Below are positions 4,257 to 46,524 of a stretch of DNA of 48,152 bases, one piece after another. Origin of the DNA: a virus (lineage: Duplodnaviria; Caudoviricetes); IMG/VR virus record IMGVR_UViG_3300049926_000016, positions 1 to 48,152 of that record, one strand, 5' to 3'. Positions within the stretch are counted from its first letter, which is position 1; every line of letters begins with the position of its first letter. The translations under genes and the position numbers were made by a program. The notes under the pieces were generated by a model that searched no databases, had not been told where the DNA came from, and saw only the letters and a program-made list of their open reading frames with translations.

Positions 4257-6767
4257 CTACTTGCCGTGATTGTACGCGAAGGAGTCGTCCGCTGTCTTCC
4301 CCGGGAAGGGGTCAACGTAGGCGGTCGGCGCCGGGGTGGGTGCCGGGGTCGGCCCGGGCAGGTTCGACGGGGCCGGGGTGGCGGTCGGCGCGACGCCGGT
4401 CGGGTTCTGCGGGGTGATGACCGGATTGGGCTGCGTGGGCGGCTGCATGGCGCCGACGAGACCGGCCCACGGGGCGTTGGTGGCCCAGCCAGCGGCGCTG
4501 CCGCCCTGTCCGATTGCGCCGGTCATGCCGGGCTGGCCCTGAAGGTAGCTCGGGAGCCCCGGGATTGTAATGTTCTGCCCGCCGAAGTTGACCTGCACCT
4601 TGCCCTGCGTGGCCTCGGGCACCTGCGCCATGCCGGGGTACTGGAGGTCGGCCCGCATGGCCGGGTTCATGTTGCTCGCGCGCACCGCGCTGTCGAGGCT
4701 GTTGTCCTTGACCGACGTGGCGGTCTTCCACGCATCGGCGATGCGCTGGTCGTACGGATTGGTGATGCCCAGCACGTGCATCGTCTGCGCGAGGAACTGC
4801 TGCTGGAAGTTGGGGTCCGCCGCGAACTTGGAGACTTGGTCGGCGGTCTGCGTGGCGGCCGAAGCCGTGACGGACGCGGAGAGCGGCGAGCTGAAGGTCG
4901 TGCCCGGGATGTCCCCGGCCTGAAGGCGCGAGTTGCTGAACGCCTCCGCCGACGGGGTCGAGCCCGCGAGCTGGATGGGGGTCGTGACGGAGGAGGTCAC
5001 GTGGCCCTTGTCGTCCACCTGACTGTTGACGGTCGAGGACTGGAGCCAGCCGTTCTTGACGGAGACCGTGATGCTCGACTCGACGCCAGCCTTGCCCTTC
5101 TCGACAGTGCTGGTCTTGGTGTTGATGGTGCCGCCCGCGATGAGGGCGTTCTTCTGCTCGTCCGTCAGGGTGATGGCGTTCCCCTGAGAGTCCTTCAGGT
5201 TCGCAATCTGGGACCCGACGTCCACGGCGGTCGCGGCAGCCGGGGTGACGTACGTGTCGCCCTTGTTGTCAACCTGCGTGGTGGCGCCCTCGGCGAGCGG
5301 GGACGTGACGGACCACTGGTTCTGGCCGTGGTTGTCCTGATACGACCAGAGCGTCGTGGGCTTGCCGCCGACGTTGTACGTGATGTTGTAGCCCGCGAGC
5401 CGGGGCGAGCCGTTCGGGTCGTTCGGGTCGGAGACGTAGACGGCGTGCGACGGGACCATGGCCATGACGGCCTTGCCGTCCGAGCCCGGGACCATGACGG
5501 CCTGCGCGCCCTGCCCGATGGCGCCCGCCGGGACGATGCCGAGATGGCCCTGCCCGGTCGGGTCGTAGTTGCCGTTGGCATCGACTGTGGTGTAGGCGAA
5601 CGCGGCCGGATTGGCCGCCATGTCGGCTGCCTTCTGCTGGAGCCCAGACAGGACCATGGAGGTCTGCGGGTCCACGCCCGGGCGCCCGAGCATCGTGGTG
5701 CCGAAGGACGGGGCGTCACCGCCCGGCTGTCCGAGGAGGCGCAGCGCGTCAGCGTCAATCATGGCCTTCGACCCGGCGTCGATGCCGGGCGTGCCGCTGA
5801 GCGTCTGGAGCTGTTGCGCGTACATGTTCGAGGCGTTGGTCTTGTCCATGTCGGACGCGGCGGGGTCCTGCATGACCTTCATCCACGCGGTCTCGAAGGT
5901 GGTGTAGGACTGCGCGACCGGCCAGACCTTGGTGTTCTGAGCCCAGCCCGCCATGGCGCTCATGCCCTGCGTCGCGTTTGCGTACGCGGAGACGTACCCG
6001 GCCTTCTGAGCCCGGTCAGCGATGAGCGAGTAGCCCTGCGTCGCGGCGCTGATGTGCTGATTGAAATAGCCCTCGGTGAGCTGGCCGTCCCAGTGCGGGT
6101 CGGACTTGTGGATGGTGTCGAGAAGGGCCTTGTACTTGTCCGGGAACTGCGCGACGTCGGTGGTCAGCTTGGCCAGCAGCTCGTCGCCGTTGCCGGTGAC
6201 GCTCATGCCGGTGGTCTTCGACAGGTCGGACAGCGCCTTGGTCATGGCGTCACCAATTGCAATGTCCTTGTCGGTGGTGGAGGTCACGAACGCATTGAAA
6301 GCGTCGGACTTGGCCTTGTCGGCGGCAGCCCGGCCCTTGGCCTTGGCCCCCTCGATGAGCTGCGCCGCGTCCTTCTGGAGGGTGCGGTAGAACTCGCTGT
6401 TCTTCGGGACCTTGTTGGCCCACTTCAGGAAGAACCCGGCGTAGGCCGTGTCGCTCATCTTGCCCTGAAGGTGCAGGACGTCGGCCTTCGACTGGGCGAT
6501 GCCGTATTCGAGCTGCATGATTTGGTTGTTGGACGACTCGTAGTCCGGGTCGCCCTTATCGAGACCCTTCTCCCGGTCCTTCCAGTAGGCGAGCGCCATC
6601 TCGTCCGTCACCTTCTTACCCTCGAAGGTGCCGCCGTTCTTCCACGCGTCCATGATGAGGCTGTCGCGCTTGGCGACGTACTCGCGCGCAAGCGCGATGA
6701 TTTGGGCCGAGACGTTCGGCGCGACACGGGGCTGGAGGCCGAACGAGCCCCTGCGACTCCGTGCCAC
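4257..6767 (-). CDS. Putative internal virion (ejection) protein, 836 aa
   Basis: Large A/G/Q/T-rich ORF right after the portal; helical N-half and Pro-rich tail. Function inferred from position only. Confidence 0.65.
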   Translation of the reverse strand: MARSRRGSFGLQPRVAPNVSAQIIALAREYVAKRDSLIMDAWKNGGTFEGKKVTDEMALAYWKDREKGLDKGDPDYESSNNQIMQLEYGIAQSKADVLHLQGKMSDTAYAGFFLKWANKVPKNSEFYRTLQKDAAQLIEGAKAKGRAAADKAKSDAFNAFVTSTTDKDIAIGDAMTKALSDLSKTTGMSVTGNGDELLAKLTTDVAQFPDKYKALLDTIHKSDPHWDGQLTEGYFNQHISAATQGYSLIADRAQKAGYVSAYANATQGMSAMAGWAQNTKVWPVAQSYTTFETAWMKVMQDPAASDMDKTNASNMYAQQLQTLSGTPGIDAGSKAMIDADALRLLGQPGGDAPSFGTTMLGRPGVDPQTSMVLSGLQQKAADMAANPAAFAYTTVDANGNYDPTGQGHLGIVPAGAIGQGAQAVMVPGSDGKAVMAMVPSHAVYVSDPNDPNGSPRLAGYNITYNVGGKPTTLWSYQDNHGQNQWSVTSPLAEGATTQVDNKGDTYVTPAAATAVDVGSQIANLKDSQGNAITLTDEQKNALIAGGTINTKTSTVEKGKAGVESSITVSVKNGWLQSSTVNSQVDDKGHVTSSVTTPIQLAGSTPSAEAFSNSRLQAGDIPGTTFSSPLSASVTASAATQTADQVSKFAADPNFQQQFLAQTMHVLGITNPYDQRIADAWKTATSVKDNSLDSAVRASNMNPAMRADLQYPGMAQVPEATQGKVQVNFGGQNITIPGLPSYLQGQPGMTGAIGQGGSAAGWATNAPWAGLVGAMQPPTQPNPVITPQNPTGVAPTATPAPSNLPGPTPAPTPAPTAYVDPFPGKTADDSFAYNHGK

Positions 6768-8728
6768 TACTTCCGCCCGTACTTGGTGTTGTTCAGGATG
6801 CGACCGCTGAGCTTACCACCCGCAATCATCGACTGGACCTGCGTGGACTGCGGCCCGTTGGCCTGCGCCGTGGCCCCGTTGGGACCCTGCGCGAAGGGGC
6901 TGGAGTTGCCGCCCGCGACGTCGGGAGTGGCCTGCTGGTCGTACTCGCCCGCACCGTTCGGCGAGGTCGTCGGCGTGCCCTGCCCGAGGGCGGTCTGGAG
7001 GGCGGCGGCGCCGGAGGCCGCCTGACCCTGTGCTTGGTTCTGCACGCCCTGCGGCGCCTGAGCGTTGGCCGCGTTGAGCGCCGACATGAGCTGGACCATC
7101 AGGTTGACCCGGTCCGGCCAGAGCGTCGCGTCCGTGGACTCGCGGCGGATGATGTTCTGCTCCTGCTCGGGGTCATCGACACCGACGGCATCCATGCCTC
7201 GGGCCTGCGACCAGAGCTTCGCGTTGACGAGGCTGGCGGCTCGGTTGGCCGTCTCCATCTCGTCGCGCGGGGAGAGCGACGGGTCTTCCATGTCCAGCCG
7301 AGGCATCCCGTGAGAGATGACCCGCTTGACGAACTTGGCGTTCTCGCCCTTCATGTTGGCCCAGACGCGGCAGACCAGCTCCCACGTCTTGCGGTCCCAC
7401 TCGTAGAACAGCAGGCGCCGCATTGCAATGCGCGACTCGTAGTTCGCGAGGAGAGCGTTGATAGCCTTCGAGGAGTTCAGGACCGCGCTCGGGGCGAGCC
7501 CCAGCAGCAGGTCGTTCAGGCCGGAGATGATGGCCATTTCCCGGTCGATGCGGCCGAGGAACTGCTCCAATTGGAATTCCGCGATGTACGGGGCGATGGC
7601 CTCGAAGCGGTTGCCGGGTCCCGGGGACACGGTCTGGTTGAGCATGGGCTTCACGGCAGCGGCGCCGCGCGCCGGGGCGTTCTCGCCCGTAATCTGCCAG
7701 TAGTCGCCAGCGGTGGCCTTCTGTATCATCTGCGCGCCAGCCGTGATGCGCGTCATCTTCTCGCGGATAAGCTGCTCCATGTCGTGCAGCTCGGACCGGC
7801 CGGTGGGGGTGCCCGGGATGAAGGTGTTGAACAGGGGCACGTACGGGACGACCCCCTCGTAGTAGTCGTACTTCACGTCGCGGACGACCTCGTTGCCGAC
7901 GACGATGCAGTTCCACGTCTCCATCTTGGCGGGCTGGCCCTTTTTGCCGGGCTTGCCGACCTTGCGGTACCAGTAGTCCCAGACCTCGATGCGGGCGGGA
8001 CCCCAGTTCAGCTCGGGGCGAGGGATGTCGGCGTAGGCCGAGTCGATGGCACCCGTGACCCACGGGACTATGGTGCCGGACGTGCCGGAGAGGTCCTTGG
8101 CCGTGACCTCGACGCTGTATCGCTCCATCGCCGCGTTCGGGTCGATGAGCGTGACCTGCGCGGCCCACTCCAGCGAGTCGTAATTGTCATCCTTGAACCC
8201 GAGGTACAGGTTGCGGGGGTTGATGACGGGCTCGGCGCACGGGTAGCCCTTCATGCTGTCGGGGTAGACGAAGGAGGCGGTCCGGCCGTAAAGGCCCTTG
8301 ACCACGGCGGCCTTGTGGCGCTTCAACTGCCACTGCTCGTCCACGGTCCACGACTCACGGATGCGCTCCAGAGCGTTCGCGTCGTCGCGAGCCTCCTCGC
8401 TGTCCGCGATGGCGACCATGTTCTCGATGGGGGCCACGGACTGGAGCGCGGCTGGGACCTCGACGTAGACCTGCGGGTTGTTCAGTGAGACGTGGCTGCG
8501 GCCATCGACCTTCAGATTGGGGTCGTCGGGCCACAAATCGGCGCCGAACTGGGTATAGGTGGTCGAATAGAACAGCTTGTCGTTGCGCTTGCACTCGTCC
8601 GCGAAGGCGTCGTGCTCCAGCTTGATGCCCTGAATACGGCCCTGCAACTGGCGCTGGAGGACCATGTTGTCCTTCTCGCCCATGGTGAGCCCGATGGCCA
8701 GCGTCAGGTCTTGGTACTTGGGTTCCAC
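6767..8728 (-). CDS. Portal protein
   Basis: Follows TerL; ~650 aa with portal-like motifs (VPYVPLFN..PG...GRSELHD) and a Q/A/G-rich C-terminal tail. GTG start at 8728 chosen. Confidence 0.85.
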   Translation of the reverse strand: MEPKYQDLTLAIGLTMGEKDNMVLQRQLQGRIQGIKLEHDAFADECKRNDKLFYSTTYTQFGADLWPDDPNLKVDGRSHVSLNNPQVYVEVPAALQSVAPIENMVAIADSEEARDDANALERIRESWTVDEQWQLKRHKAAVVKGLYGRTASFVYPDSMKGYPCAEPVINPRNLYLGFKDDNYDSLEWAAQVTLIDPNAAMERYSVEVTAKDLSGTSGTIVPWVTGAIDSAYADIPRPELNWGPARIEVWDYWYRKVGKPGKKGQPAKMETWNCIVVGNEVVRDVKYDYYEGVVPYVPLFNTFIPGTPTGRSELHDMEQLIREKMTRITAGAQMIQKATAGDYWQITGENAPARGAAAVKPMLNQTVSPGPGNRFEAIAPYIAEFQLEQFLGRIDREMAIISGLNDLLLGLAPSAVLNSSKAINALLANYESRIAMRRLLFYEWDRKTWELVCRVWANMKGENAKFVKRVISHGMPRLDMEDPSLSPRDEMETANRAASLVNAKLWSQARGMDAVGVDDPEQEQNIIRRESTDATLWPDRVNLMVQLMSALNAANAQAPQGVQNQAQGQAASGAAALQTALGQGTPTTSPNGAGEYDQQATPDVAGGNSSPFAQGPNGATAQANGPQSTQVQSMIAGGKLSGRILNNTKYGRK

Positions 8729-8741
8729 TGTGCTGCCTATC

Positions 8742-10388
8742 CTACGCGGGTCGCTTGAAAGATGCAACTGTCGTCTGAGACATGTCCTGCCCGGCAAACA
8801 GCTTCTCGGCCGCCGTCATCAGACGCTCCGCGTCGGGGTCCCCGTAGACGAACCCGCCAGCCTTAGCCGCGCCCGGCCGGGGGAGCGAGCGGGACAGCTT
8901 CACGATGATAGCGAGGCACATCACGAGGTCCTGCTCCTGCTGGCGGTCGGCCAGCTTGTAGTTGAGGCACTGCTTCTGGACCTCGGACCAGAACCCGCCG
9001 ACGGGCAGCTTCAGGTTGCCTTCATCGAACGCGGTCCGGAGGTCGGAGAGGAGCTGCCGCTTGGTCTTGATGACGCCGCCGAACTCGATGGTCCGGACGA
9101 CCGGGATGGCCTCCTCCAACAGCTCCTTGAACATGTGCCCTCCGAGCGCGGTGTGGTCCACGCCGGTCTCGATGTCGGCCCCGTCCTTGGCGTACCGCTT
9201 GTGGTCGCGGGCGCCCAGCGCGACGATGCCGCGCGTGGTCTGCTTGCCCTCCTGCCGGTCCAGTGAGACGCCGGTCAGACGACCATCGCCATCCATCTCG
9301 CAGACGAGGGACCAGCACTTATCCTTCAGGCCCGGGTCGAGCGCGTGGGCGTAGACGTGCCCGGCGCCGCCGGGCTCCGTGCTCTCGGGCAGCCCCTCGA
9401 TGAAGGCCGCGCGCACCGACGCCGCGTTGAACCAGACCCCCATCGCTTGGATGAACATGCCCTCGATGTTCTGGTCAATCCAAGCCTGCGGCTGGTGCAG
9501 GATGAGGGCGTCGAAGGACTCGCGGTCGATGCCGAACCCGATGTTGTCGCGGGTGGACATTCTCATGCTGAAGGCGCGCGGGTCGCGGAACGGGTCCTCG
9601 GGGTCGCCCGTGAACCACAGGTCCTCGAACTCGGTGGACGTGTCGGCTGACGGGGTCGAGATGAGGAAGAACTGCCCGCCGGTCGAGAGGCGCCGGGCGT
9701 GCATGATTTCCTTGACGAGGTACACGAGGCTCGGGCTCTCCTGAAGGCCCGCCTCATCGAATGACAATCCGTGCATGTTCTGACCGATGGCCGACAGGGC
9801 CTTGGCCTTGGTGCTGCGGAAGTGGACCTGCGCTCCGCCCAGCTCCCCGGCGAAGGCAATCCACGCGTACTCGCCGCGCTCCTTCGGCCCCTCGGTCCAC
9901 TCGACGCCCTCGGTCTGCGTGGCCTTGGCGACCTTCCGGGCGCCGACGACCTCGCTGCCGCCACCGATGGCCTTGGTCCACGGGCAGCCCGCCTTCTGCG
10001 CCGCGTGCGAGCCGCCCAGCAGGTTGATGACCTCGCTGAAGACCTGCTCGGCCGGAGCCTGCTCGACGGCGAAGTGCCACCAGTGATACGGAAGCGAGCC
10101 GAACCGGCGCAGCTCCTCGGCAGTGGCCCCAGCCTTGGGCGGCTCCAGTCCGGTGCGGTAGATGCAGGAGTGCAGGATGATAATGGCGAGCGCCATGGTC
10201 TTGCCCGCGCGGTTCCCGGCGGCCACCATGACCCAGTAGTAGAACGCGCGCCATCGGCTGTCGGTGCGTTTGATGTACGCCTCCACCATCCGGCGCTGGC
10301 CCGGGTGCAGCTTGACGCCGAGGAAGATGCGGGCGAACCGCTCGGGGTCCCAGCGGCACCGCTCGAACTCCTTGACCCAATCAATCAC
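8742..10388 (-). CDS. terL: Terminase large subunit
   Basis: Walker A AAGNRAGKT, Walker B LSFDEAG, motif III LISTP, RNase H-like ALDPG and DLVMCLA. Confidence 0.93.
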   Translation of the reverse strand: MIDWVKEFERCRWDPERFARIFLGVKLHPGQRRMVEAYIKRTDSRWRAFYYWVMVAAGNRAGKTMALAIIILHSCIYRTGLEPPKAGATAEELRRFGSLPYHWWHFAVEQAPAEQVFSEVINLLGGSHAAQKAGCPWTKAIGGGSEVVGARKVAKATQTEGVEWTEGPKERGEYAWIAFAGELGGAQVHFRSTKAKALSAIGQNMHGLSFDEAGLQESPSLVYLVKEIMHARRLSTGGQFFLISTPSADTSTEFEDLWFTGDPEDPFRDPRAFSMRMSTRDNIGFGIDRESFDALILHQPQAWIDQNIEGMFIQAMGVWFNAASVRAAFIEGLPESTEPGGAGHVYAHALDPGLKDKCWSLVCEMDGDGRLTGVSLDRQEGKQTTRGIVALGARDHKRYAKDGADIETGVDHTALGGHMFKELLEEAIPVVRTIEFGGVIKTKRQLLSDLRTAFDEGNLKLPVGGFWSEVQKQCLNYKLADRQQEQDLVMCLAIIVKLSRSLPRPGAAKAGGFVYGDPDAERLMTAAEKLFAGQDMSQTTVASFKRPA

Positions 10389-15376: not shown

Positions 15377-15778
15377 ATGGCCACCAGCACCAGCACCCGG
15401 AAGCGCGCCACGGCAGCCGACATCGCAGCGGCCGTGAAACTGGGCAGCATCGCACCCGATGCCGAAGTCGTGACGGCCGACGAACTGGCCGAGCGGGATG
15501 CCGAAACCCGCGCCACCGTAACGGCCGAGCGGCCGAGCCCGAGCCTGTCGGCAGCCGAGCACCAGTGCGGCATCGTCGGATGCCGTCATGGCAGCGCGCA
15601 TCCGGTCGTCTCGCAGCCGGACCGTCAGGTCAAATTGCAATGCCCGGGATGCGGCGCAGTCGCCCGCATGACGGCAGCGGCCATCGCCCGGACGGCCGGG
15701 GCGGGCATCACCTGCAATGGTGACGGCCAGACATTCACAGTGGCAGCGCGGCGCACCTACTCCCGGAAGTCGGCATGA
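15377..15778 (+). CDS. Zn-binding hypothetical protein
   Basis: SD GGAAGGGG; MATSTSTRKR...; CGIVGCxH and CPGC..C motifs. Confidence 0.75.
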   Translation: MATSTSTRKRATAADIAAAVKLGSIAPDAEVVTADELAERDAETRATVTAERPSPSLSAAEHQCGIVGCRHGSAHPVVSQPDRQVKLQCPGCGAVARMTAAAIARTAGAGITCNGDGQTFTVAARRTYSRKSA

Positions 15779-16863
15779 CTGCGAGCGCGCAGCCGAGCAC
15801 CGGGACGTCCAGCACCAGCACCGACAGCACGAAAGGGACACCGACCGTGGACACGAGCACCCCTGCGGGCAAACTGGCGGCGGCCATCGACGCGAACATC
15901 CCGGCCCTACTGATGGGCGCACCCGGGACGGCCAAGACGGCCACCATCGAAGCAATTGCAATCGCCCGGGGGGCGTATCTCGAAGTCGTCATCGCGTCGG
16001 CCCAAGACCCGACGACAATCCTCGGCATCCCGATGCCGACCGAAGACCGGAAGTACACCGAACCGACCATGCCCGGGTGGGCGCGGCGCATCAACGCAGC
16101 GCATGACGCGGGACGGCCGACCATCCTGTTTCTGGACGAACTGACGACGGTCCCGCCGTCGGTGGCGGCGCCATTGCTGGGCATCGTCCAGTCCCGTCGG
16201 TCTGACGGCTGGACACTCCCGGCCGATACTCGCATCGTGGCAGCGGCCAACCCGCCAGACCTAGCGGTCGGTGGCTGGGCAATCGAGCCCGCCATGGCCA
16301 ACCGCTGGACGCATATCGACTGGCCGAGCCCGGTGGCCGACTGGACAGCATGGGCGGCGGCGCAGTCCAGCCCGACGCTCCGGTTGCTGGCCGACTACAT
16401 CCGGACCGTCCCGGAGCAATTGCTCGCAGTCCCGACCGACATCCGGAAGCGGTCGGGCGCATGGCCGAGCCCGCGCTCGTGGACGAACGCAGCCCGGCTC
16501 GTGGACACGACGGGCGACTACCTGATGGCCGCGCTGGCCGTCGGCGATGCCGCTGCGGCGACGTTCGCGAACTGGGCATCGAAGCGTGACGTTCCATCGG
16601 TGGCCGACATGCTCGCCGGGACGGTCCCGCTGCCCGAACGGCATGACGCGTTCGTCACGTCATTGCAATCCCTGACGGAAGCGGTGACGGCCGAGACGCT
16701 GGGCCGAACGCTCGACATCCTGACGGCCGCCGTGGCCGTTGACGCGAGCGTCGTGGCCATCGTCACCCGGAAGATGGCGCAGCGCGGTTTCGTCGTCGGT
16801 CTGGCCGGTCTCGTGGCCACCATCGAAGCGGCCGGAATTGACTTCGGGTCGGTGGCGGCATGA
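15775..16863 (+). CDS. MoxR-type AAA+ ATPase
   Basis: Walker A GAPGTAKT, Walker B LFLDE, sensor AANP, EPAMANRW arginine finger, PSPRSW. Confidence 0.92.
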   Translation: MTASAQPSTGTSSTSTDSTKGTPTVDTSTPAGKLAAAIDANIPALLMGAPGTAKTATIEAIAIARGAYLEVVIASAQDPTTILGIPMPTEDRKYTEPTMPGWARRINAAHDAGRPTILFLDELTTVPPSVAAPLLGIVQSRRSDGWTLPADTRIVAAANPPDLAVGGWAIEPAMANRWTHIDWPSPVADWTAWAAAQSSPTLRLLADYIRTVPEQLLAVPTDIRKRSGAWPSPRSWTNAARLVDTTGDYLMAALAVGDAAAATFANWASKRDVPSVADMLAGTVPLPERHDAFVTSLQSLTEAVTAETLGRTLDILTAAVAVDASVVAIVTRKMAQRGFVVGLAGLVATIEAAGIDFGSVAA

Positions 16864-18074
16864 CGGCCGGACGGTTCAACGTAGACCCCCGCATCAACGC
16901 TGCAATCGAACGCACGTTCGAGACGCACCCCTACTACGCGACGGCCGTTACCCGGTTGCGCATCACCCCGGATGCCAACGTCCCGACGATGGCCACGAGC
17001 GCGGAATGGGTCACGCATTACAATCCGGCGACGGTCGCCGGGTGGACGCGTGACGAGACGGCCGCCGTCATCGTCCACGAACTGGAACACCTACTCCGGG
17101 ACCATAACGGCCGCTGCGGCGACCGCGACCATGGCCAGTGGAACGTCACGGCCGACGCGGAAATCAATCAACGGCTGCCCGGTCTCCCGGCCGGAGCGGT
17201 GTACCCGTCCACATTGTCATTGCCCGAGCGTCTGACGGCCGAGACGATGTACGCGTTGAACGGTGGGAAGCGCGGCGAGCCCGAGCCCGAGCCCGGAGCG
17301 GGTGACGGTGACGGTGGTAGCGGCGAGGGTTCCGGCGATGGCGCCGGAGCACCCGGCGACGGTCCCGACTGCGGCAGCGCGGCCGGTGGCGCCACCCGAC
17401 CATGGGAAGCCAACGACGAACGGCAGCCGGGCGCCGGAGCGGCCAACGGCGGCGACGATGCCCGGAAGGATGTTGCCCGGTCCATCATGGGCGGAGCGGC
17501 AGCCGGAACGGCCGATGCTGACGAACTGCGCGAGTGGGCCGAGACGGAACTGGGCATCGACCGCGCGGGATGGTACCGCGCGCTGGCGGCGGCCGTCGGT
17601 CATACGATGGCACCGTTCGGTGCACCGACCCGCTGGGTCTGGCCGGGGCGCCGGGACATCCGGGACATGGGCGGGGCGATGGTCCCGCGCTGGACCGGCG
17701 AACGGCCGTCATGCGCAGTCGTCATTGACACCAGCGGCAGCATCACCCAACTGGACATTGAAATGGCAGTGGCAGCAGCCCACTACATCGGCCGCATGGC
17801 CGACATCCGGGTCTACGGCTGCAACACCCAAGTCGTGGACTACGGGACCACTGTACCCGAGCGCATCCGGGGCGGCGGCGGGACGAACATGGGGGTCGGC
17901 ATCGGACGGGCCATCGCGGACGGTGCCAAGGCTGTCGTCGTCATCACCGACTGCGAGACCCCGTGGCCGGAGAACGCGGGGGTCGCGGTCATCATCGGAG
18001 CCAACGCGAGCGCGAGCACCTACGGTGTCCCGGACTGGATGACGGTCCTCCCCATCATGGCCGAGACCGACTGA
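16860..18074 (+). CDS. DUF2201-like metallopeptidase + VWA domain protein
   Basis: HELEH zincin motif, WNVTADAEIN, acidic/Gly linker, MIDAS DTSGS, GGGGT, VITD. Confidence 0.92.
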   Translation: MTAGRFNVDPRINAAIERTFETHPYYATAVTRLRITPDANVPTMATSAEWVTHYNPATVAGWTRDETAAVIVHELEHLLRDHNGRCGDRDHGQWNVTADAEINQRLPGLPAGAVYPSTLSLPERLTAETMYALNGGKRGEPEPEPGAGDGDGGSGEGSGDGAGAPGDGPDCGSAAGGATRPWEANDERQPGAGAANGGDDARKDVARSIMGGAAAGTADADELREWAETELGIDRAGWYRALAAAVGHTMAPFGAPTRWVWPGRRDIRDMGGAMVPRWTGERPSCAVVIDTSGSITQLDIEMAVAAAHYIGRMADIRVYGCNTQVVDYGTTVPERIRGGGGTNMGVGIGRAIADGAKAVVVITDCETPWPENAGVAVIIGANASASTYGVPDWMTVLPIMAETD

Positions 18075-18325: not shown

Positions 18326-18355
18326 TTGACAGGTGTCGAGTAGTGGGCGCATAAT
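18326..18355 (+). promoter_or_regulatory. Sigma70-type promoter driving the rightward early operon
   Basis: TTGACA-18 bp-CATAAT; SD GGAGG before the ATG at 18406. Confidence 0.8.
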
Positions 18356-18657: not shown

Positions 18658-18842
18658 ACCAGCCCGTCCTGCTGGACCTCGCCCGAGCGGCTGAGTCCGG
18701 CATCGTCCTGAGCCTGTCGGAAGACATGGACCGGGTTCCCGAGGATGGTCGAGGGCCGAACGCGTGCCCCATGTGCGACGATGGCATCCTCACCATCACC
18801 CATCCCGTGCGCTGCAAGGCGTGCATCGCGGAGGGATTGTAA
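18654..18842 (+). CDS. Small Zn-finger protein
   Basis: CPMC...CKAC; ATGA overlap with the previous gene. Confidence 0.7.
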   Translation: MNQPVLLDLARAAESGIVLSLSEDMDRVPEDGRGPNACPMCDDGILTITHPVRCKACIAEGL

Positions 18843-19225
18843 TGTCGGCCAACGCACCGAGCGCCGAAGACCTCGCGGCGGTCGCCCGTCTGCTGGGACT
18901 CCCGGCCGAGGCCCCGACCACCATCACCGAATGGAAGATGCTGGGCTCATCGGGCAAGCACTACGTCATCACCAACCGCATCAACACGAAGCACGGCGGG
19001 ACCTACCTGCACTGCACGTGCCCGGGCTGGGCTTTCCAGTTCAACAAGGGCCGGGACTGCAAGCACGTCGCCGAAATCCGGTACGACCTGAGCCGCAAAG
19101 AGACAGCCGACCAGTATCCGGGGACCTGCGTCGAGTGCTTGGGCGTCGTCCGGGACATCAACGACCTGTCCGCTCATGCCGTCCGACACCAAGTCGGTAC
19201 CGGCGCCCTGCTGCGGAGGGCGTAA
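18842..19225 (+). CDS. SWIM zinc-finger protein
   Basis: HCTCPGW...DCKHV (CxC-CxH); TAATG overlap start. Confidence 0.8.
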   Translation: MSANAPSAEDLAAVARLLGLPAEAPTTITEWKMLGSSGKHYVITNRINTKHGGTYLHCTCPGWAFQFNKGRDCKHVAEIRYDLSRKETADQYPGTCVECLGVVRDINDLSAHAVRHQVGTGALLRRA

Positions 19226-21695: not shown

Positions 21696-22127
21696 ATGTC
21701 GAGTCTCGAAGGCGAGGTCAGCACCGACACGTCGCTGTACCAGATGAAGGAGAAGCATCCTTCGTGGCGCTGCCTCGCCGCGCTCGACCAGAGCGAGTCG
21801 TACGAGACGGACGTGACCGAGGTCTGGCTCGACACCCTCACCGGCAAGTTCCACGTCGCCACCGCGAGCGGATGCTCATGCTGGGACGGGGAGTTCGACT
21901 CGACCGAGTACGACACCATGGAGGAGCTGGCCCACAGCCTGATGACCGAGGACCAGCCCAATTACAATCCGTCGGTCGTCGGCGCTGTTCGCCTCATCGA
22001 GATGGCCCGCGACAACTATCCCAAGCTGATGCTCGACATCCCCCTCCACGAGCCGGTCAAGGTTCGGCTCGCCGGGGCGTCAGAGGCGGACCTCGAAGCC
22101 GCCCGGAAGCTGGGCGTCGTCCACTGA
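21696..22127 (+). CDS. Hypothetical protein (SGCSC motif)
   Basis: SYETD...ASGCSCWDG motif, which I recall from small proteins of high-GC phages. Confidence 0.75.
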   Translation: MSSLEGEVSTDTSLYQMKEKHPSWRCLAALDQSESYETDVTEVWLDTLTGKFHVATASGCSCWDGEFDSTEYDTMEELAHSLMTEDQPNYNPSVVGAVRLIEMARDNYPKLMLDIPLHEPVKVRLAGASEADLEAARKLGVVH

Positions 22128-22628: not shown

Positions 22629-22744
22629 AGTACGAGGTCAACTGCGGCCCCTGTGGCTGCATCATCCTCATCCTCATCCTCGCGGCGCTGGTCCTCGGAG
22701 CGAGCGACCTGCTGCACACGCTGTTCGCCGCCATCCATGCCTGA
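22625..22744 (+). CDS. 39-aa membrane peptide (not in the ORF track)
   Basis: GTGA overlap; MKYEVNCGPCGCIILILILAALVLGASDLLHTLFAAIHA; fills the gap between its neighbours. Confidence 0.6.
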   Translation: MKYEVNCGPCGCIILILILAALVLGASDLLHTLFAAIHA

Positions 22745-23825
22745 GAACGCAAGCCTCAACTCCGCCGGGTTCCGCATGTACGCATGGCCCGGCGGCGATA
22801 CCCCGCTCCACCACGAATACAACGCGACCCAGCCCGCGCTGGTCATCTCGGTGACGGCAGCCCGCTCGGTCGTCGGCATCCCGTGGCAGCTCCAGCGGTG
22901 GCAGAACAACAACCTCACGAACCTCGCCACCGGCCAGCGCCGGGCGGAGTGGCGCGACTACTCGAAGTCCACCCGTGGGCGGCTCGTGAAGGGCTACAAG
23001 AAAGACGGCCCGTTCCCCGGTGAGTTCGTCACCCGGATGCTTGCCACCAATGGCGACGAGGACCAACTCCGCGCGTTGCGCGCATGGTTCCAATCCACTG
23101 CCGACGAGCCGCGCGACATCGCTGCGGTCCGAGGCTCGGTGGTCCACAAGCTCATTGAAATTCGGGCGCCGTTGAAGTCGCTGTCCGAGGACGTCATCCG
23201 CTGGTACATGGACGAGCAGTGGTCGAAGGAGGGTCGCAAAGTCCTCCCCACCGTGACCGACGAGGACATCGACTTCGTCGGCAACTGCATGGCCAACTAC
23301 TGGGCTATGCGCGACGCCACCCCGTTCGTCATCATCGCGCAGGAGCCGCAGGTCTGGAACCTCCGTGTCGGGTATGCCGGGTCCGCCGACGTCCTGCTGT
23401 GGTTCCTGCCGGAGGGCGAGTCGGTCGAGTTCTGGCAGAAGGAAGCTAACGCCAAGCGCATCACGGTCGAGACCATCGCCCGGGTGGGCGGGGTGCTCGG
23501 GCTCGGCGACTGGAAGACCAGCCCCGACGTCTACACCGGCCACGTCATCCAAGGCACGGCCTACATGGCGGGCGACTTCATCGGCTCGGGCGACGTCATC
23601 GACGGGCGCCTGTCGAAGCTGCTGAAGGCCACCATGCAGGGGCTCATCCTCAAAATCCGGCCGGACGGCTGGGAGGTTGACACGTTCGAGTACACTGAGG
23701 ACACAAGCCGCGCGTTCTTCGGCGAGATTGCGCTCGCGCGGTTCCTCTTGACACACGAGAAGCCCGCCGCACTGTTCACGTCAAGCACCAGCGGCCAAGC
23801 TGCCGCAGACTGGAGAACCGAATGA
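22737..23825 (+). CDS. PD-(D/E)XK (Cas4/RecB-like) exonuclease
   Basis: ISVT, RGSVVH, EPQVW...GYAGSAD, GDWKTS, QGTAY motifs. Confidence 0.85.
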   Translation: MPENASLNSAGFRMYAWPGGDTPLHHEYNATQPALVISVTAARSVVGIPWQLQRWQNNNLTNLATGQRRAEWRDYSKSTRGRLVKGYKKDGPFPGEFVTRMLATNGDEDQLRALRAWFQSTADEPRDIAAVRGSVVHKLIEIRAPLKSLSEDVIRWYMDEQWSKEGRKVLPTVTDEDIDFVGNCMANYWAMRDATPFVIIAQEPQVWNLRVGYAGSADVLLWFLPEGESVEFWQKEANAKRITVETIARVGGVLGLGDWKTSPDVYTGHVIQGTAYMAGDFIGSGDVIDGRLSKLLKATMQGLILKIRPDGWEVDTFEYTEDTSRAFFGEIALARFLLTHEKPAALFTSSTSGQAAADWRTE

Positions 23826-24406
23826 CCACCGCAGCAAAGGAGGGCCGGACCAGCGTCCTCGCATCACTGACCGCCGAGGTCATGGGCGAGAAGACCAAGG
23901 CCGCCAAGGCCACCCTGACCCCCGTCGCCGGGGAGTCCACGTTCCCGCTGGAGAGGGCGCTCATCCCCAACGACACGGGGACGTTCATGTCGAACGAGGG
24001 CCTGCACGACCACGCGAAGAACCTCCGCAAATTCGCATCCGAGGCAATTGCAATTGCCGATGGGCTCGACGCAATTCTTCAGGAGTCCAGCTCGGACGAG
24101 AAGGTCGTAGACCTCGACGCCGCGCGCAAGGCCAAGGAGGCCGAGGGCGACGCGAAGGCCGAGGCCGCCAAGGCCCCGAAGCCGGTCGAGCCGGAGCCCG
24201 AGAACAATGGCGACGGGGACCCGGAGACCAGCGGGTTCGCCGCCGACTTCGCCGCCAAGCAGGCCGCCGCACAGGCCGCCACGTTCAGTGCCCCGACCGG
24301 CAAGGGCTGGCACTGCCCCGTCCACAACAAGCCGGGAGTCCCGAAGGTCAGCGGCAAGGGTCGCGACTTCATCGGGTGCCCCGACTGCAATCAGTTCCAA
24401 GGGTAG
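23822..24406 (+). CDS. Hypothetical protein with C-terminal Zn ribbon
   Basis: WHCPVH...FIGCPDC; coupled to the exonuclease gene. Confidence 0.75.
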   Translation: MTTAAKEGRTSVLASLTAEVMGEKTKAAKATLTPVAGESTFPLERALIPNDTGTFMSNEGLHDHAKNLRKFASEAIAIADGLDAILQESSSDEKVVDLDAARKAKEAEGDAKAEAAKAPKPVEPEPENNGDGDPETSGFAADFAAKQAAAQAATFSAPTGKGWHCPVHNKPGVPKVSGKGRDFIGCPDCNQFQG

Positions 24407-24412
24407 GTCCTC

Positions 24413-25486
24413 GTGACCCTCAACGCGGTCGCCCATTCAGGCAACCTGTGCTCTGGTCTATGCCGCCCGCCGTGCAGTCACATCGACTGCTGGCAGTGCG
24501 GCGAGATGTCTGACTCGCAGGCCATCGCGGCCGAGACCAAGTCGGCCAAGGAGCGCATTGCCAAGCTGGCCGCCCTCACTGACCCGAAGCCCGCGAAGGC
24601 GAGCATCCTGTCGGCCATGTCGGGCAAGCCGTCGGCCGAGGTCCAGAAGACCACCATCACGCGAGCCGCCCTCGAAGGGCTGTGCGAGAAGGCTGGCATT
24701 ACAATGGACTGGAACTACGGCAACCCCATCTTCAAGGACTCGGGCGTCCGTCAGGACATCGCCGACTTGGAGAAGCGGTATGCGCAGGCCGAGCGCGCGG
24801 TGCTGGAGGAGAAGGTCAAGGAACTCCAGCGCATCGCCGACCAGCAGCGGCAGGGCGTGCTGTCCACGCAGGCCGCGAACTCGATGGCCAAGGCCGCTGC
24901 CCAGCAGATGGACACCATGGCCAACGACGTCATCAAGGAGAAGGTCGAGGCCCAGATGCGGGCGGACGCCATCGCCAACGAGGCCCGCATCCGCGCCGAC
25001 ATGAAGGCCAAGGGTGCGACTGACGCGGACATCGACGCCGCCGTCACACTGCTCGGGTGGAAGCCTGACCAGTCGTTGCCGGAGCCGCCCAAGTTCCTGA
25101 TGGGCGTGGACCTCGCACGGGACCCGGAAGACTGGACGGCCGACGACATGGCGGCCTACTTCGCCAAGCTGGACGCCGGGCTCATGTCCGTGTCCGGGCT
25201 CAACGACCTACTCTCGGGGTCAGCCCCGGCGCAGGTGACGTCGGGGGATGCGCTCACCGCGCAGCAGGTCCAGACGATGGTCGCCGCGCTGAAGGCCAAC
25301 AACACAATCTACCCCGGGGCCGGAGCTGGCATTGCAATTGTGCACCCGTCCACCGTGTTCCAATCTGAAATCAGCGACCTCATCAACCGCAAGATGCAGG
25401 AGACCCTGCGGGCGCCGCTCCCCCACCTGATGCCCGACCAGCACATCGGCTGGAAGGCCCGCATCAAGGGCGTGCTCGATGCCTGA
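24413..25486 (+). CDS. Coiled-coil protein with capsid-protein-like C-terminal mosaic
   Basis: Helical middle; the C-terminus shares LRAPLPHL, AIVHP and IGWK with the major capsid protein. Start uncertain (24413 or 24506). Confidence 0.8.
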   Translation: MTLNAVAHSGNLCSGLCRPPCSHIDCWQCGEMSDSQAIAAETKSAKERIAKLAALTDPKPAKASILSAMSGKPSAEVQKTTITRAALEGLCEKAGITMDWNYGNPIFKDSGVRQDIADLEKRYAQAERAVLEEKVKELQRIADQQRQGVLSTQAANSMAKAAAQQMDTMANDVIKEKVEAQMRADAIANEARIRADMKAKGATDADIDAAVTLLGWKPDQSLPEPPKFLMGVDLARDPEDWTADDMAAYFAKLDAGLMSVSGLNDLLSGSAPAQVTSGDALTAQQVQTMVAALKANNTIYPGAGAGIAIVHPSTVFQSEISDLINRKMQETLRAPLPHLMPDQHIGWKARIKGVLDA

Positions 25487-26696: not shown

Positions 26697-26995
26697 GCAC
26701 CGACGTCGAGACCCTGAAGGCCGAGTCGGTCAGCGAGGACGTGGACCTCGGCCGCGCCGTCCGGGTCCGCTGGATTGACAGCGGGCTCGCGGCACATGAC
26801 GGCTGGATGCTGCGCTCCGACATCCCAGACAACGTGGCCACCGTCGAGACCGTTGGGCTCTGGCTCGGCGAGAATGACAATGTGGTCATGGTGGCCGGGA
26901 CCCGGGCCACCGCCGAGTCGATGGGCTCGGAGCAGTACCTCAACGCGCAGGTCATCTACAAGCCGTGCATCGTGTCGAAGGAGTGGCTGTCGTGA
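26693..26995 (+). CDS. Hypothetical protein
   Basis: TTGA overlap; VRVRWIDS...GW...ETVGLW pattern seen in small phage proteins. Confidence 0.7.
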   Translation: MSTDVETLKAESVSEDVDLGRAVRVRWIDSGLAAHDGWMLRSDIPDNVATVETVGLWLGENDNVVMVAGTRATAESMGSEQYLNAQVIYKPCIVSKEWLS

Positions 26996-27312
26996 AGCTG
27001 AACATCCGCAACCCGTTCGCCAAGTCCGAGACGGCCCCGGCCGTGCCGGTCCAGCCAAAGGGCCTGACCCCGCAGGAAGTTTGGGAGGCCCCGGCCACCT
27101 TCAATCGCGCCACCCGGCGCTGGGCTCGACTCTGGGGCTCGGTCTGGCGCTGGGACCCGCGTGCGCTCGGCATCCCGGCCGACCTCCCGGCGCGCTACGT
27201 GCGGCGCCACTTCGTCCCCGCCCAGTTCCTCAACCCCAAGACCCGGCGCCAGCGTCGCCACCGGGCTCGGGTCATCCGCTCGCTCCAGCAGAAAGGACAG
27301 TACCCCCGATGA
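26992..27312 (+). CDS. Basic hypothetical protein
   Basis: SD AAGGAG, GTGA overlap; Arg-rich, NRATRR. Confidence 0.65.
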   Translation: MKLNIRNPFAKSETAPAVPVQPKGLTPQEVWEAPATFNRATRRWARLWGSVWRWDPRALGIPADLPARYVRRHFVPAQFLNPKTRRQRRHRARVIRSLQQKGQYPR

Positions 27313-27971
27313 GTGAAGACCCTCGCACCAACGACTTCAAGCCGCTGGCCGGAGCGCCAGTCTTCAAGCCGTGGCCCAAGCTGCCCCGGCTGAACCGTGA
27401 CATTGTCATCACGGAGAAGGTGGACGGCACCAACGCCGCCATCGGCATCATCGACCACGACCCGACGTCCGTCGCCGACGGCGGCGCTCCGGTCATCGAG
27501 GTCTACGCCCAGTCCCGCACCCGCATCATCACCCCGGAGAAAGACAACTTCGGGTTCGCCGCGTGGGTCGCCAGCAAGGCCGACCTCCTCATCGCGGCGC
27601 TCGGGCCGGGCCTCCACTTCGGCGAGTGGTACGGCAAGGGCATCCAGCGAGGCTACGGTCTGGACGAGCGGCGCTTCGCCCTGTTCAACACCGCCCGCTA
27701 CGCGCCCATCCCGTTCGCGGAGCTAGGGCTGCCCGAGGTCAACGCCGTCCCCGTCCTGTACGAGGGGCCGTTCGGCGAGAAGTACATCAAGGCGGCGCTC
27801 GAAGTGCTGCGCCAGTACGGCTCGAACGTCGGGGCCAAGGGCGACGAGCCCGCCGAGGGCATCGTGGTCTTCCACGAGGCCGGTGGCACCATGTTCAAGG
27901 TCACGCTCGAAGGCGATGGAGAGCCCAAGTCAGTGCGGGAAGCCCGCATTGCAATGGAGGCCACCGCATGA
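27309..27971 (+). CDS. RNA ligase (Rnl2-like nucleotidyltransferase domain)
   Basis: Motif I EKVDGTN, QSR, FGEWYG.GIQ, RFALF, EGIV, FK. Confidence 0.9.
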   Translation: MSEDPRTNDFKPLAGAPVFKPWPKLPRLNRDIVITEKVDGTNAAIGIIDHDPTSVADGGAPVIEVYAQSRTRIITPEKDNFGFAAWVASKADLLIAALGPGLHFGEWYGKGIQRGYGLDERRFALFNTARYAPIPFAELGLPEVNAVPVLYEGPFGEKYIKAALEVLRQYGSNVGAKGDEPAEGIVVFHEAGGTMFKVTLEGDGEPKSVREARIAMEATA

Positions 27972-35756: not shown

Positions 35757-38700
35757 CTAGACCGCGATGAACCTATACGACAGGGTCGAGCCCGGAGTCA
35801 GGTTGCCCGGCGTCCCGGTCTTCGTCCACAGCATGTCGAGCGTCACGTCGTTGGTGGCGTCGTACGGGATGACAATGTTCAGTACGGTCGAGAAGTGCTT
35901 GAACAGGGTTGAGGCGCCCGAGTTGATGGTATGCGTGGCCCACGTCGTATGGACAGCCGAGGCGGCCGTCACGGTGACGAGTGTGCCGACCCACTGGTGG
36001 GTCCCGGCGGCCAGTGCGGTACCGCCGCCAGCGACGAACGCCTCCGTAACCAGTTTCTCCGCCCAGATGCCAGCCGTCCCCTCCTGAAGGGCATTGTCCG
36101 GGCCGAACCACGCGCTGATGGACGCCGCCTGATTGGCTAGAATGGCCGACGTGGTATGACGGCAGGTGCAGAGCCAACGGGTCCCGTCGTAGCGGAACTC
36201 CATGCCGATGTCCGAGCGGTAGAAGTGGTCGCCCGTCACCGGACTGGCCGGGAACGCCGCGCCCGTGCGGTTGATGACACCATTGCCCTTCAGGGTGAAG
36301 CCCGTGCCAGCCGATTTCAATTGGGCGGGGGTGCCCGCCGGGAACGCCGTGCCTGTGCCGTCGTGGGTCCCCGACCCCGTGTAGTCGGTGAACACGCGGG
36401 ACGTGAACAGGCCCGTGGCTTGCAGCCAGTAGGTCCCGGCCCCGGTATCCGTGGCGTTCATCAGGAAGTAGGCGCGTCGGTTGTCCGGGTCGTCCGTGCC
36501 ACCGACCGGGATGGCCGGGTTGCCGAACGTGACCTGCTCGCGCCGACGAATGACCAAGCTGGTGCGCGGGCTGACGGCGGTCTCGTGCGTGCCGCCAGTG
36601 GCGTTAGAGTCGTACCACGAGTAGGCACCCCAGAGGGTCGAGCTGGCCGTCGTCCAGTCCCATGCGCTGAACTTCCAGACCTTGGTCGGGGTGCCGATGG
36701 CGAAGCCCCGGAAGACGGTGCCGTCGTGGGTGAGTCCGGAGCCAATTGTAATTGCCTGCCCAAAGTCTCGGTTGGCCGTGTTCGTTAGAGTCGAGCCTGA
36801 CCACGTGTAGCCGTAGACCGCCGAGGTCGTGGCAATCCAGTAGGTAGCCGCGCTCGCATTGAGCGGGTCGTTGAGGCGGGCGCCTCCCCGGAACGTGTCG
36901 GTCGTGCCGCTGAAGGTGGGGCCAGCGACGGCCGTGGCGGTCGTGGCACTGACGGCCAGCGTGCTCGGCGTGACCCAGACCACCTTCATAAACACCCCGG
37001 CCCCGGTGCCGGTCGTGGTCGTGATGACGAGGAGGGTGGACCCGGCGTCGTAGAACAGGCCAGCCTGCGCCTTGGTCCCAGAGATGGCTGTCTGGACGCC
37101 CGAGTTCGTCACCCACGCCAGCGTGGTGCGGTCGTACTTCCAGACGACGCCGTTCGTGTCGAGGGTGTAGATGTAGGTCCCGTCGGTGCAGACGCCAATC
37201 ATCTTGGCGGTCTCCTTGCGGGTGTCCACGTCGTACGTGTAGGTGAAATAGACGTTTGGCTTGCCCGCCGTGTCGCGCGTGCCCCAGCCCGTGCCGTCGG
37301 CAGTGGTCCCGTCGCCCGAGTAGGTGGTCTTTCCGGAGCCGTCATCCTTGTCGTGCTGGCTGCCATCCGTCGAGTTGACGCGGCGGAAGCCGACGCGGTA
37401 GGTCGTCCCACCCGTGACGGCGAGGGCCGATGACAATGTGGCGTTGTGCAGGTCCGAGGCTCCAACGGTCGTCACGCCACCGGAGGCCGCCGTGTAGGTG
37501 GCGCTCTCACGAAGGTTGACGTTCGAGGTATTCCAGACACCGTTGCGCGTCGAGCACGTGCCCGAGCGGCCCGCCATGTAGACGGCGACCTTGGTGATTT
37601 TCAGGTTGGTGGCACCAGCCGGGTTCGGCATGACCATCGGCGTCGTGATGTGCGAGTCGGTCGAGCCGACCAGTCCGTCAGCGGTATCGGAGATGTGTGA
37701 GGTCGAGCCCGAGGTCGTGGTGAACGAGGCGATAGACCCGGTCGCACCGATTGACCGGACGAGCGCGCCCGTCGTCGCGTTGAACTCCTGCGCCACGTAG
37801 AAGGGCGAGACGGTCGGGTCACAGGCGACCCAGAAGGTCCCAGCCCCGGAGTCGTACCCGATGCCCGCACCGATGTTCGTCGGCGTGGCGCCGAGGGTCA
37901 GGCTGTCCACGCCAGCCACCATCGTTGGCGCCGTGCTTGGAGTGGCGACGCCATTCTGGAGGGTGCCGACGAGGCCCGACTCCAATGACAATGCGGTGCG
38001 CAGCGCCGTGGCGGACTGGACCGTCAGGGTGTCGGCGTCCACCTTGCCACGGAAGTAGACCGGGTCGCCGTTCGTCGGGATGTTGACGATGAGGCTGTCG
38101 TCAGTGTCCATGAGCCGGATGCCCGCTGTGTCAATCTCCACGCGCCGGGTGCCGGACTGGCCGGTCTTGATGAGCGACGACAGGACGATGGTGGCGGCGA
38201 GGATGTCGGCCGTCACGGCGCCCGCGTGGAGGAGCGGCGTGGTGATGGAGCCCGGCAGGATTTTCGACTCGGTGATGATGCCGTCCTGCACGTCGTTGGC
38301 CAGCAGGGCGATGCTCGCGGAGAGGCTGTCGTTGCCCGCGATGGTGGTGACGGTAGCCTCGGTGCAGTACGGCCCGGCGTTACCGTAGACGTCCCACTCC
38401 CGGACGCGGACATTGTAATTGGTGGAGCCGAGGCACGGGATGCTCAGCTCAGTCGAGCCCTCCGGCATGTTGTAGATGAGGGGGGACGTCCAGTCGGCGA
38501 CGGTCGTGATGACCTTGACGATGGTGGCCGCCGAGATGTCGGACGTGAAGTCCACGGCCGCGCCGCCGAGCGTCAGGCTCACCTTGAAGTCGTTGGCCGT
38601 CAGGCCGGTCGCGATGACGAAGTAGTCTGGCGACGCGATGGTCAGACCGGCGCCACCCGCCAGTGACATGAACCGGACCTTGTCGTTGGCGATGAGCCCG

Positions 38701-42964: not shown

Positions 42965-43147
42965 CTACTCCCTCACGTCCCGGGACACAAGGTCCCCGGC
43001 GAGGTACCGCTCGTAGTTGAGCGCGATGTCGGCGTCACGGGCGACGCGGTCGTTGGCCCAGACGCAGACGGCGCATGGGCAGCCATCGAGGGGGGCCGGT
43101 CGGCCGTCGTGGGCGGGGGCAGCGGGGGCAGCGTTCGCGGTCTTCAT
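42965..43147 (-). CDS. Small hypothetical protein
   Basis: ATGA overlap start MKTANAAP; CPCAVC. Confidence 0.55.
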   Translation of the reverse strand: MKTANAAPAAPAHDGRPAPLDGCPCAVCVWANDRVARDADIALNYERYLAGDLVSRDVRE

Positions 43148-44562: not shown

Positions 44563-44581
44563 TGGCCTCCCATGGTACATG

Positions 44582-44650: not shown

Positions 44651-45883
44651 CTAGAGCTGGGACGTGTGCTCGATGCGCCGGTACCGGGCGGGGGTGACGC
44701 CAGTGGCGTTGGCACCCTCTCCCATGATGACGGCCCCGAACATGCCCTTCCACCCAATCTGGGTGAGCTGATGCAGCGGGTCCGTGGTCCCACCCGGCTG
44801 GGTGAGGTACGTCTGGATGCTGCCCCAGTCGCCGAAGGCGTACGCCTCCGGTCCGAAGATGACCGCATTGAGCACGTCGTTGACCACGTTGGCCGTGAAG
44901 GCCGAGCTGTCCGACGTGATGTCGATGGCCGCGCCGTTGAGCGTTGCCGACAGCTTGAAGGTCGTCGCCGTGACAGGCGCCACGACGAAGTACGTGTTGC
45001 CTGCGGTCAGGCCCGCACCGCCCGTGATGGCGGTGATTTTGATGCGGTTCCCCGCCACCAGACCCAGAGGGGCCGAGTAGGTGATGAGGTCTGTGGCCGC
45101 GATGGCCGCCGCACCCGCGTTCGTCAGGACCGGGCCGTTGACAGCCGCGAAGCTGACAGCCGCCGGGGACTCGATGAACCGGACGCCTGCGTACCGGCCG
45201 ACTTCCCCTGTGAACAGGGCAGCCGAACCCGCGTAACGCTGGGCGTCAATCCACCCGCCGACCGCCGTGTCGCTTTCGAGGTCGAAGGTCGAACCCGGGT
45301 GCACGATGGCGCGGTAGGTGCCGTCCGAGAAGGTCGGGACCGCAGCAGCCTTCAGGCGAGCGACGGTGAGCTTCACGAGCGCGCCCGTGAGGGCGGAGTT
45401 GCTGTTGATGGTCGCACGGGAGGTTGCCCCACCCGCATACGTGACCTGCGCACCAGCCGACAGGACCTCGGCGACCCTGCGGTCGGCCGTGGCGATGGCG
45501 TTGCGTGCGACTCGGTCGGCGGCCTCGCTCAGGAGGTCGAAGGGCGACTCCATGAGACCGATGTCCGAGAGCTTGATGACGCGGCCTGCCTGATTGGCAG
45601 AGAATTCCTCGTAGCCGATGGCGAGGTCTTCCGTGGTGTTCGGCGCGCCCTCGTTGAGCCACGGGAGCGTGCCCGGGGTCGGCGTACCGGCCACGACGGA
45701 CATGTCCGCGATGTTGATGAACCGCATGACGTTGTTCGTCCCCTTGACGAACGCGGCCTCACGGAAGTTGCCCGGAAGAAGGTGCGGGAGCGGTGCTCGG
45801 AGCAGTTCCTCCAGACGCTTGTTCACCAGAGCGACAACCGTCTGGTTGAAGTTCGTGGTGGCGGTGGAAACGATGGTACCCAT
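44651..45883 (-). CDS. Major capsid protein, N4-gp56 family, with an inserted AHGL-type domain
   Basis: LNEG, AIVHP...DL, W..AQRY, GEVGRYAGVRFIES, FGPEAY, DPLHQ...GWK motifs; SD GGAG. Confidence 0.93.
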   Translation of the reverse strand: MGTIVSTATTNFNQTVVALVNKRLEELLRAPLPHLLPGNFREAAFVKGTNNVMRFINIADMSVVAGTPTPGTLPWLNEGAPNTTEDLAIGYEEFSANQAGRVIKLSDIGLMESPFDLLSEAADRVARNAIATADRRVAEVLSAGAQVTYAGGATSRATINSNSALTGALVKLTVARLKAAAVPTFSDGTYRAIVHPGSTFDLESDTAVGGWIDAQRYAGSAALFTGEVGRYAGVRFIESPAAVSFAAVNGPVLTNAGAAAIAATDLITYSAPLGLVAGNRIKITAITGGAGLTAGNTYFVVAPVTATTFKLSATLNGAAIDITSDSSAFTANVVNDVLNAVIFGPEAYAFGDWGSIQTYLTQPGGTTDPLHQLTQIGWKGMFGAVIMGEGANATGVTPARYRRIEHTSQL

Positions 45884-46470: not shown

Positions 46471-46524
46471 GTCGGGAACTGTACTACCTTTCTGCGGCGA
46501 TTGCAATAGCAAGCCGCACTACCG

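Follow-up and report, generated by a model that had tools for sequence, protein, structure and literature searches.

For a virion protein, it is not easy to change in ways that evade bacterial sensors, and capsid, portal and terminase have each been named as a trigger of such sensors (bioRxiv 10.64898/2026.01.04.697583; here and below, statements on cited papers refer to the covered sections of each source). A predicted CapRel complex places contacts at the capsid spine helix and at A-domain loops (PMC9712102), and an A-domain interface is reported for Avs7/8/10 (bioRxiv 10.64898/2026.01.04.697583). The same source describes Avs sensors as recognizing monomers in their folded state through extensive surfaces matched in shape, and some sensors have been modeled or seen binding partly unfolded targets (bioRxiv 10.64898/2026.04.30.721860), so that short buried motifs can matter as well. 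On the phage side, DSAD1 of SPbeta-like phages is an anti-DSR2 protein that competes with the tail tube protein trigger (PMC11263360). Ccm of SaPIbov5 is a capsid-protein homologue used in conflict that acts on assembly (PMC8569155), and T4 vs.8 is a non-structural phage gene, its function left open, that is homologous to part of a sensed protein, the terminase ATPase (bioRxiv 10.64898/2026.04.30.721860). Here, we describe a phage protein, P0001, that resembles each of these systems in part and joins short pieces of two virion proteins on a single chain.

The P0001 gene lies on the + strand at 24413..25486 of the window, by which we mean the whole stretch of 48,152 nucleotides that was analyzed, and it encodes 357 aa from a GTG start. 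This open reading frame (ORF) is a real gene, with a GC content of 0.90 at the third codon position and 0.45 at the second, and its Cys/His motif is likewise the starting point of 12 homologues found in other assemblies. In run X1, which may be the source sample, one contig spans the gene with 0 differences. The phage genome encodes its own capsid, portal and terminase, and its scaffold lies at 45919-46512. Its major capsid protein, of the N4-gp56 family with the HK97 fold (44651..45883, − strand; TIGR04387, E 1e-29), yielded a model (pLDDT 82.5) that matches the Sf6, P22 and N4 capsids; the pieces of this gene matched by P0001 lie, on the same strand, at 45764-45850 (N-arm), 45458-45544 (spine), 45284-45406 (A-domain) and 44741-44758 (C-terminal strand). 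Capsid residues ~250-330 form an inserted beta domain that recurs in the neighboring virion proteins 43144-44580, 39191-42094 and 35757-39749, and some capsid homologues are ~80 residues shorter. We call the ORF at 6767..8797 (− strand; matched piece 7475-7564) the portal because it adjoins the terminase gene and because PF05133 occurs on 7/120 portal homologues among the matches listed; the ORF itself gave no direct Pfam, PHROG or PDB match.

Along P0001, three motifs make up what we hereafter call the frame (counts refer to the 67-protein set defined below). The Cys/His-rich head (24428..24499), with columns invariant in 18/18 rows and found in 45/67 proteins, is likely metal-binding. A helix plus WNxGxP hairpin unit (24650..24733; 56/67 proteins) for which no donor was found forms a small helix/strand unit in the P0001 model, and a short helical tag of the DxxAAxxLLG type (25001..25066) occurs in 52/67. 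Between these last two lies a core helix (24866..24928) whose resemblance to the capsid spine helix emerges at the family level: in P0001 itself it is not significant (3.0 bits; 352/5000 shuffles as high), the same stretch of P0013 reaches 22.1 bits, and the spine motif passes in 16/67. The tail then carries a possible but weak terminase-nuclease-like motif (25091..25126; 3/67 proteins against a shuffle mean of 0.17), matched to a pattern that was chosen post hoc and that we presume to represent such nucleases. It is followed by a portal-derived motif (25154..25243; 19/67 proteins, up to 62 bits), a capsid A-domain helix plus IVHP strand motif (25241..25363), a capsid N-arm helix motif (25358..25444) and a capsid C-terminal strand motif, IGWK (25445..25462), all on the + strand.

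The sequence-only reading had described the ORF as ending in three capsid-like segments, and both its coordinates and the three pairings hold. In fixed-segment shuffles against the window capsid, the N-arm piece scored 81 (0/5000 as high) and the A-domain piece 59 (2/5000), whereas the C-terminal piece scored 29 (101/5000) and so stands not by itself but across the family, where 12/67 proteins exceed the 99th shuffle percentile and 0 reversed sequences do. BLASTP against the capsid gave E 1e-8 for the N-arm piece and E 7e-4 for the A-domain piece. Motif profiles were further compared with a six-frame background of 935,129 residues from which true donors had been removed: the N-arm piece reached 32.1 bits against a best background of 7.2, the portal piece 20.8 against 8.2 and the A-domain piece 13.0 against 6.2, while the C-terminal piece, at 2.6 bits against 5.5, is not significant alone. 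The eight-residue identity with the capsid noted earlier, within the N-arm motif, is exact, with 3/8 codons the same and 5/8 differing. The mosaic had, however, been confined to 25235-25486, and it is wider: the portal-derived piece at 25154-25243 had been overlooked, and against the portal ORF 6767-8797 it scored higher than all shuffles (0/5000 as high).

These pieces do not add up to a second capsid or portal. P0001 shows short, separate matches in non-colinear order instead of colinear homology to most of the capsid, and no TIGR04387 or Pfam match; its likeness to the portal amounts to one 30-residue match, and in the family to at most ~85 profile positions, instead of full-length homology. 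Beyond a weak capsid match (phrog_1357 at E 0.0086 for P0001 and E 1.2e-4 for P0013), no informative Pfam, PHROG or NCBIfam family was found, and PADLOC assigned 0 defense families to 9/9 proteins. The P0001 model (pLDDT 71, pTM 0.34) strings together separate helices, each corresponding to a motif; it does not show the HK97 fold and returned no match at E 0.001 in Foldseek searches of PDB and BFVD, comparisons that the low pTM limits. Judged by this model, the pieces do not rebuild the capsid fold. A fixed permuted mini-capsid is ruled out by the changing motif order, the helix-string model and the lack of a fold match.

P0001 belongs, by sequence, to an unnamed family of ~64 proteins. An 18-row profile retrieved 56 proteins among 1.84 billion representatives, and the family comprised 64 proteins after the removal of 5 duplicate loci, with some near-copies left; adding 3 small ORFs from G001 and G005, chosen for carrying motifs, gave the 67-protein set. 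Family proportions are biased upward by these near-copies and chosen ORFs, and by the inclusion of motif columns in the search profile. We compared the 64 proteins with 26 gene profiles of the phage group, built from 120 homologues each for capsid and portal and from 2-23 sequences for the other 24. The capsid profile gave 25 matches of at least 5 bits against 0 in reversed sequences, the portal profile 15 against 1, and shuffled sets 0.1 matches per set for these two profiles. Each of the other 24 profiles gave 0-3 matches; hence, of the 26 profiles, only capsid and portal match the family at the sequence level, and further donors may be missed because the other profiles rest on so few sequences. 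Scaffold, adaptor, tail, ejection, primase, helicase and small-terminase donors did not rise above controls, and isolated 14-residue matches to a helicase and an AAA protein were treated as chance. For terminase, the full profile found no match in the family; a Walker A model exceeded the null maximum in 2/67 proteins and Walker B in 0/67, and post hoc patterns found 2, 4 and 3 of 67, a weak signal. Pfam PF17289 had no match in the window genome.

Motif-sized models located the copied parts more finely. Counting first proteins above the 99th shuffle percentile and then those above the shuffle maximum (n = 67), we found the N-arm motif in 23 and 11 proteins, the spine helix in 16 and 9, the A-domain motif in 15 and 8, the C-terminal strand in 12 and 2, and the main portal motif in 19 and 18; two further portal motifs gave 3 and 1, and 3 and 2, with 0-1 in reversed controls. 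Capsid and portal motifs occurred together in 14/67 proteins and no motif was found in another 14/67; at a strict cut above every shuffled control, 38/67 proteins carried a motif, with 29 layouts among them. Depending on the member, the N-arm motif was placed before, within or after the frame. The family is thus best described, from these alignments, as a fixed frame of Cys/His head, WNxGxP unit and short helical tag, with capsid and portal motifs whose sets and orders change. A mosaic of capsid motifs, as first proposed, stands, but its description as a permutation of the capsid alone does not, since portal motifs are equally common and the order varies by member. Conservation of the tail among homologues, which had been set as a test, was borne out: throughout the family, these capsid motifs are found again in the correct reading frame, with third positions saturated. 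On a tree of the frame motifs (27/67 rows), the portal motif needs ~6 changes, with weak support, and a single origin is possible.

The third codon positions bear on the age of the pieces. At identical residues of four-fold type, the third base agreed with the genome's own donor in 26/66 cases, where chance is 0.42; this pool combines nine pairings, of which two were aligned to the wrong place, and leaving them out gives 23/57. The same comparison between the capsid genes of the window and G001 gave 141/235. Because their third positions are at chance, the pieces are not recent copies from the phage's own group. Third bases would likewise be at chance (72/166) for a donor at the distance of G002, and the codon data are thus compatible with capture from a farther phage. 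We rejected an origin of the pieces by recent duplication of the phage's genes at the DNA level, the longest exact shared DNA being 10-13 bases with third positions at chance. No piece was identical over its length to any donor among those listed, where the best identities for P0001 pieces were 15/29, 21/49 and 19/29. Retention of residues followed donor conservation for three motifs (rho 0.54-0.72), and not clearly for the portal motif (0.24), a correlation that is partly circular because the profiles weight conserved columns. Tails were less alike than head plus core in 10/10 pairs, e.g., 55% against 96%; an arms race and relaxed selection would explain such rapid turnover of the tail equally well.

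The gene is part of a + strand cluster preceded by a sigma-70-like promoter (18326..18355, +) that matches 11/12 consensus positions, a consensus match only, and no + strand terminator-like site is listed in the window. From this position, opposite in strand to the virion genes, P0001 would be expressed early. Two conserved neighbors of 390 and 194 aa, without a Pfam family, lie upstream (22653..24406, +); both were found just upstream in 5/6 family loci, sometimes with one small gene between, and the sixth locus was too short to tell. In 3/3 whole sister-group contigs, the neighbors were kept and the family gene was missing, with no motif above background. The helical tag is common to several unrelated early proteins, some without capsid or portal motifs, including 3 window ORFs besides P0001 (14972-15775, given as a reading frame, 18839-19225 and 21696-22127) and ORFs at L016:2309-2593 and L028:55-420. 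In two further small genes of G001 and one of G005, the tag is combined with a motif of the capsid or the portal; such small early ORFs, carrying the capsid N-arm, portal or capsid A-domain motif, lie at L017:7361-7777, L017:7774-8130 and L016:4554-4775. Relatives occur in bins or records labeled Dehalococcoidia, Anaeromyxobacter, Chloroflexota and Nocardioides, and there was no match among 50,697 GenBank phages.

Some further features of the locus were observed alongside these. At the head of the + strand cluster, a MoxR-like AAA+ ATPase stands beside a VWA/metallopeptidase gene (DUF2201; 15775-18074), an arrangement conserved in relatives. Downstream of the mosaic gene, 26775-27971 encodes an RNA ligase domain (PF09414) that is present in L017 and was not found in L016, L028 or L029. 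The palindrome ATTGCAAT has 27 copies in the window, where 0.13 are expected, spread over both gene blocks (e.g., at 6256, 25331 and 48062); it is common in close relatives (L016, L017, L028 and L029), and three sister-group genomes lack it. One copy falls inside the A-domain piece and sets three codons there.

We tentatively favor, at somewhat less than an even chance, the reading that P0001 acts early, through its several motifs, as a decoy for, or an antagonist of, the host sensors that detect virion proteins. Under this reading, gene pieces would have been captured long ago by recombination, with selection then acting on the peptide. A host-type promoter would drive the gene early and so supply a protein whose fixed frame, a chain of helices, presents conserved motifs of capsid and portal as short, reshuffled copies; this mosaic would bind and occupy a host immune sensor without setting it off, as each piece is too small to rebuild a fold. 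In favor of the decoy, both proven donors are recognized as triggers, and the parts copied from them overlap sites where sensors are reported to make contact. It also counts that a target need not be fully folded for some sensors to engage it, and that the gene is an accessory one that changes quickly. Several points weigh against it: helices of 15-50 residues cannot rebuild the large shape-matched surfaces that Avs sensors read, a binding piece might activate the sensor, and conserved motifs are in any case the easiest to detect. A broader version is possible but more doubtful, namely, that the motifs form a modular set of epitopes that recombine, drawn from the virion proteins capsid, portal and probably also terminase, and carried on the frame or on the shared tag across several early genes, with which one protein would neutralize several host sensors at once and whose motifs would list the peptides read by the immunity of the uncultured soil host. 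If the decoy reading is true, copying and reshuffling conserved virion pieces would be a general counter-strategy for which we found no printed description. Irrespective of its target, each motif offers a short probe that is ready for use, and about 60 natural variants are at hand for screening against known sensors of capsid, among them Avs7, Avs8, Avs10 and CapRel, and of portal, among them Avs4, Avs11 and RAZR, and against assembly; such screening would reveal the surfaces that matter in conflict and could bait unknown sensors.

The N-arm, spine and A-domain helices copied in the family are subunit-contact elements in HK97-type shells, which suits equally well a rival in which the pieces dock on capsid and portal subunits that a related phage infecting the same cell has not yet assembled, and cap the shells and rings of that phage. 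Interference with a helper's assembly and packaging is known from satellites, through Ccm (PMC8569155) and Gpi (bioRxiv 10.1101/2024.04.22.590561), and the window portal piece is closer to another phage's portal (19/29 identical) than to its own, which ranks 94/120. Yet there is no systematic tilt away from self: only 2/24 capsid pieces and 8/15 portal pieces were closer to the sister group, whose mean score is lowered because that group is more varied. Pieces aimed at the sister phage group are thus unsupported by the own-versus-sister scores, and the eight-residue capsid motif identical to the phage's own would lead one to expect self-poisoning. We therefore regard such jamming of assembly as unlikely, though the most serious of the rivals.

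The same scores would suit a protein that helps its own phage, either by keeping hold of capsid and portal subunits or setting their timing, or as a component packaged in the head, since capsid pieces averaged higher against the own group in 22/24 cases and the gene's position is conserved. The motif sets, however, differ widely between the window and G001, whose capsids are 86% identical, and the gene lies outside the virion operon and is absent from three sister-group genomes; we give such a helper role little credence. Only slightly less improbable is that the frame alone works and the tail gathers virion-gene fragments by recombination, with no selection on the motifs. Whole pieces are gained and lost between close relatives (P0006 and P0011, P0012 and L028), 14/67 proteins lack any motif, and the junction between pieces often falls on a residue that both share, as expected of joining by microhomology. 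Against such debris, all pieces keep the donor's reading frame and orientation, residues persist while their third positions are at chance, there are just two donors among 26 profiles, and the same motifs recur in the separate small genes of G001 and G005. Explanations that we did not consider keep a share about as small as that of the helper role. Set beside these, the early decoy remains our preferred reading.

In the largely open-access literature searched, no shuffled multi-donor mosaic is described; the covered parts of 10.64898/2026.01.04.697583, 10.64898/2026.04.30.721860, PMC9712102, PMC11263360, PMC10981675, PMC13017515, PMC13728456, PMC12409349, 10.1101/2024.04.22.590561 and PMC8569155 contain none. 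The mosaic family to which the soil phage's gene belongs is to this extent undescribed, and its function is a proposal from sequence. Its motifs come from the N4-gp56 capsid (TIGR04387; phrog_1357) and the SPP1-type portal (PF05133), but unlike these sources, the family holds only pieces of 15-50 residues, out of order and with donors mixed. T4 vs.8, by comparison, corresponds to one complete folded domain of a single donor and, being toxic with EcAvs2, is an activator. Ccm is a satellite-encoded capsid homologue, whereas P0001 belongs to an autonomous phage, takes short pieces of two proteins and shows no HK97 fold in its model. DSAD1 is one folded protein acting on one sensor, with neither trigger-copied pieces nor a shuffled multi-donor layout reported in the covered sections; it nevertheless embodies the principle proposed for P0001, competition between an accessory phage protein and a structural trigger over a bacterial sensor. 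Neither a capsid paralogue nor a portal by the comparisons above, P0001 may, by analogy, work like DSAD1.
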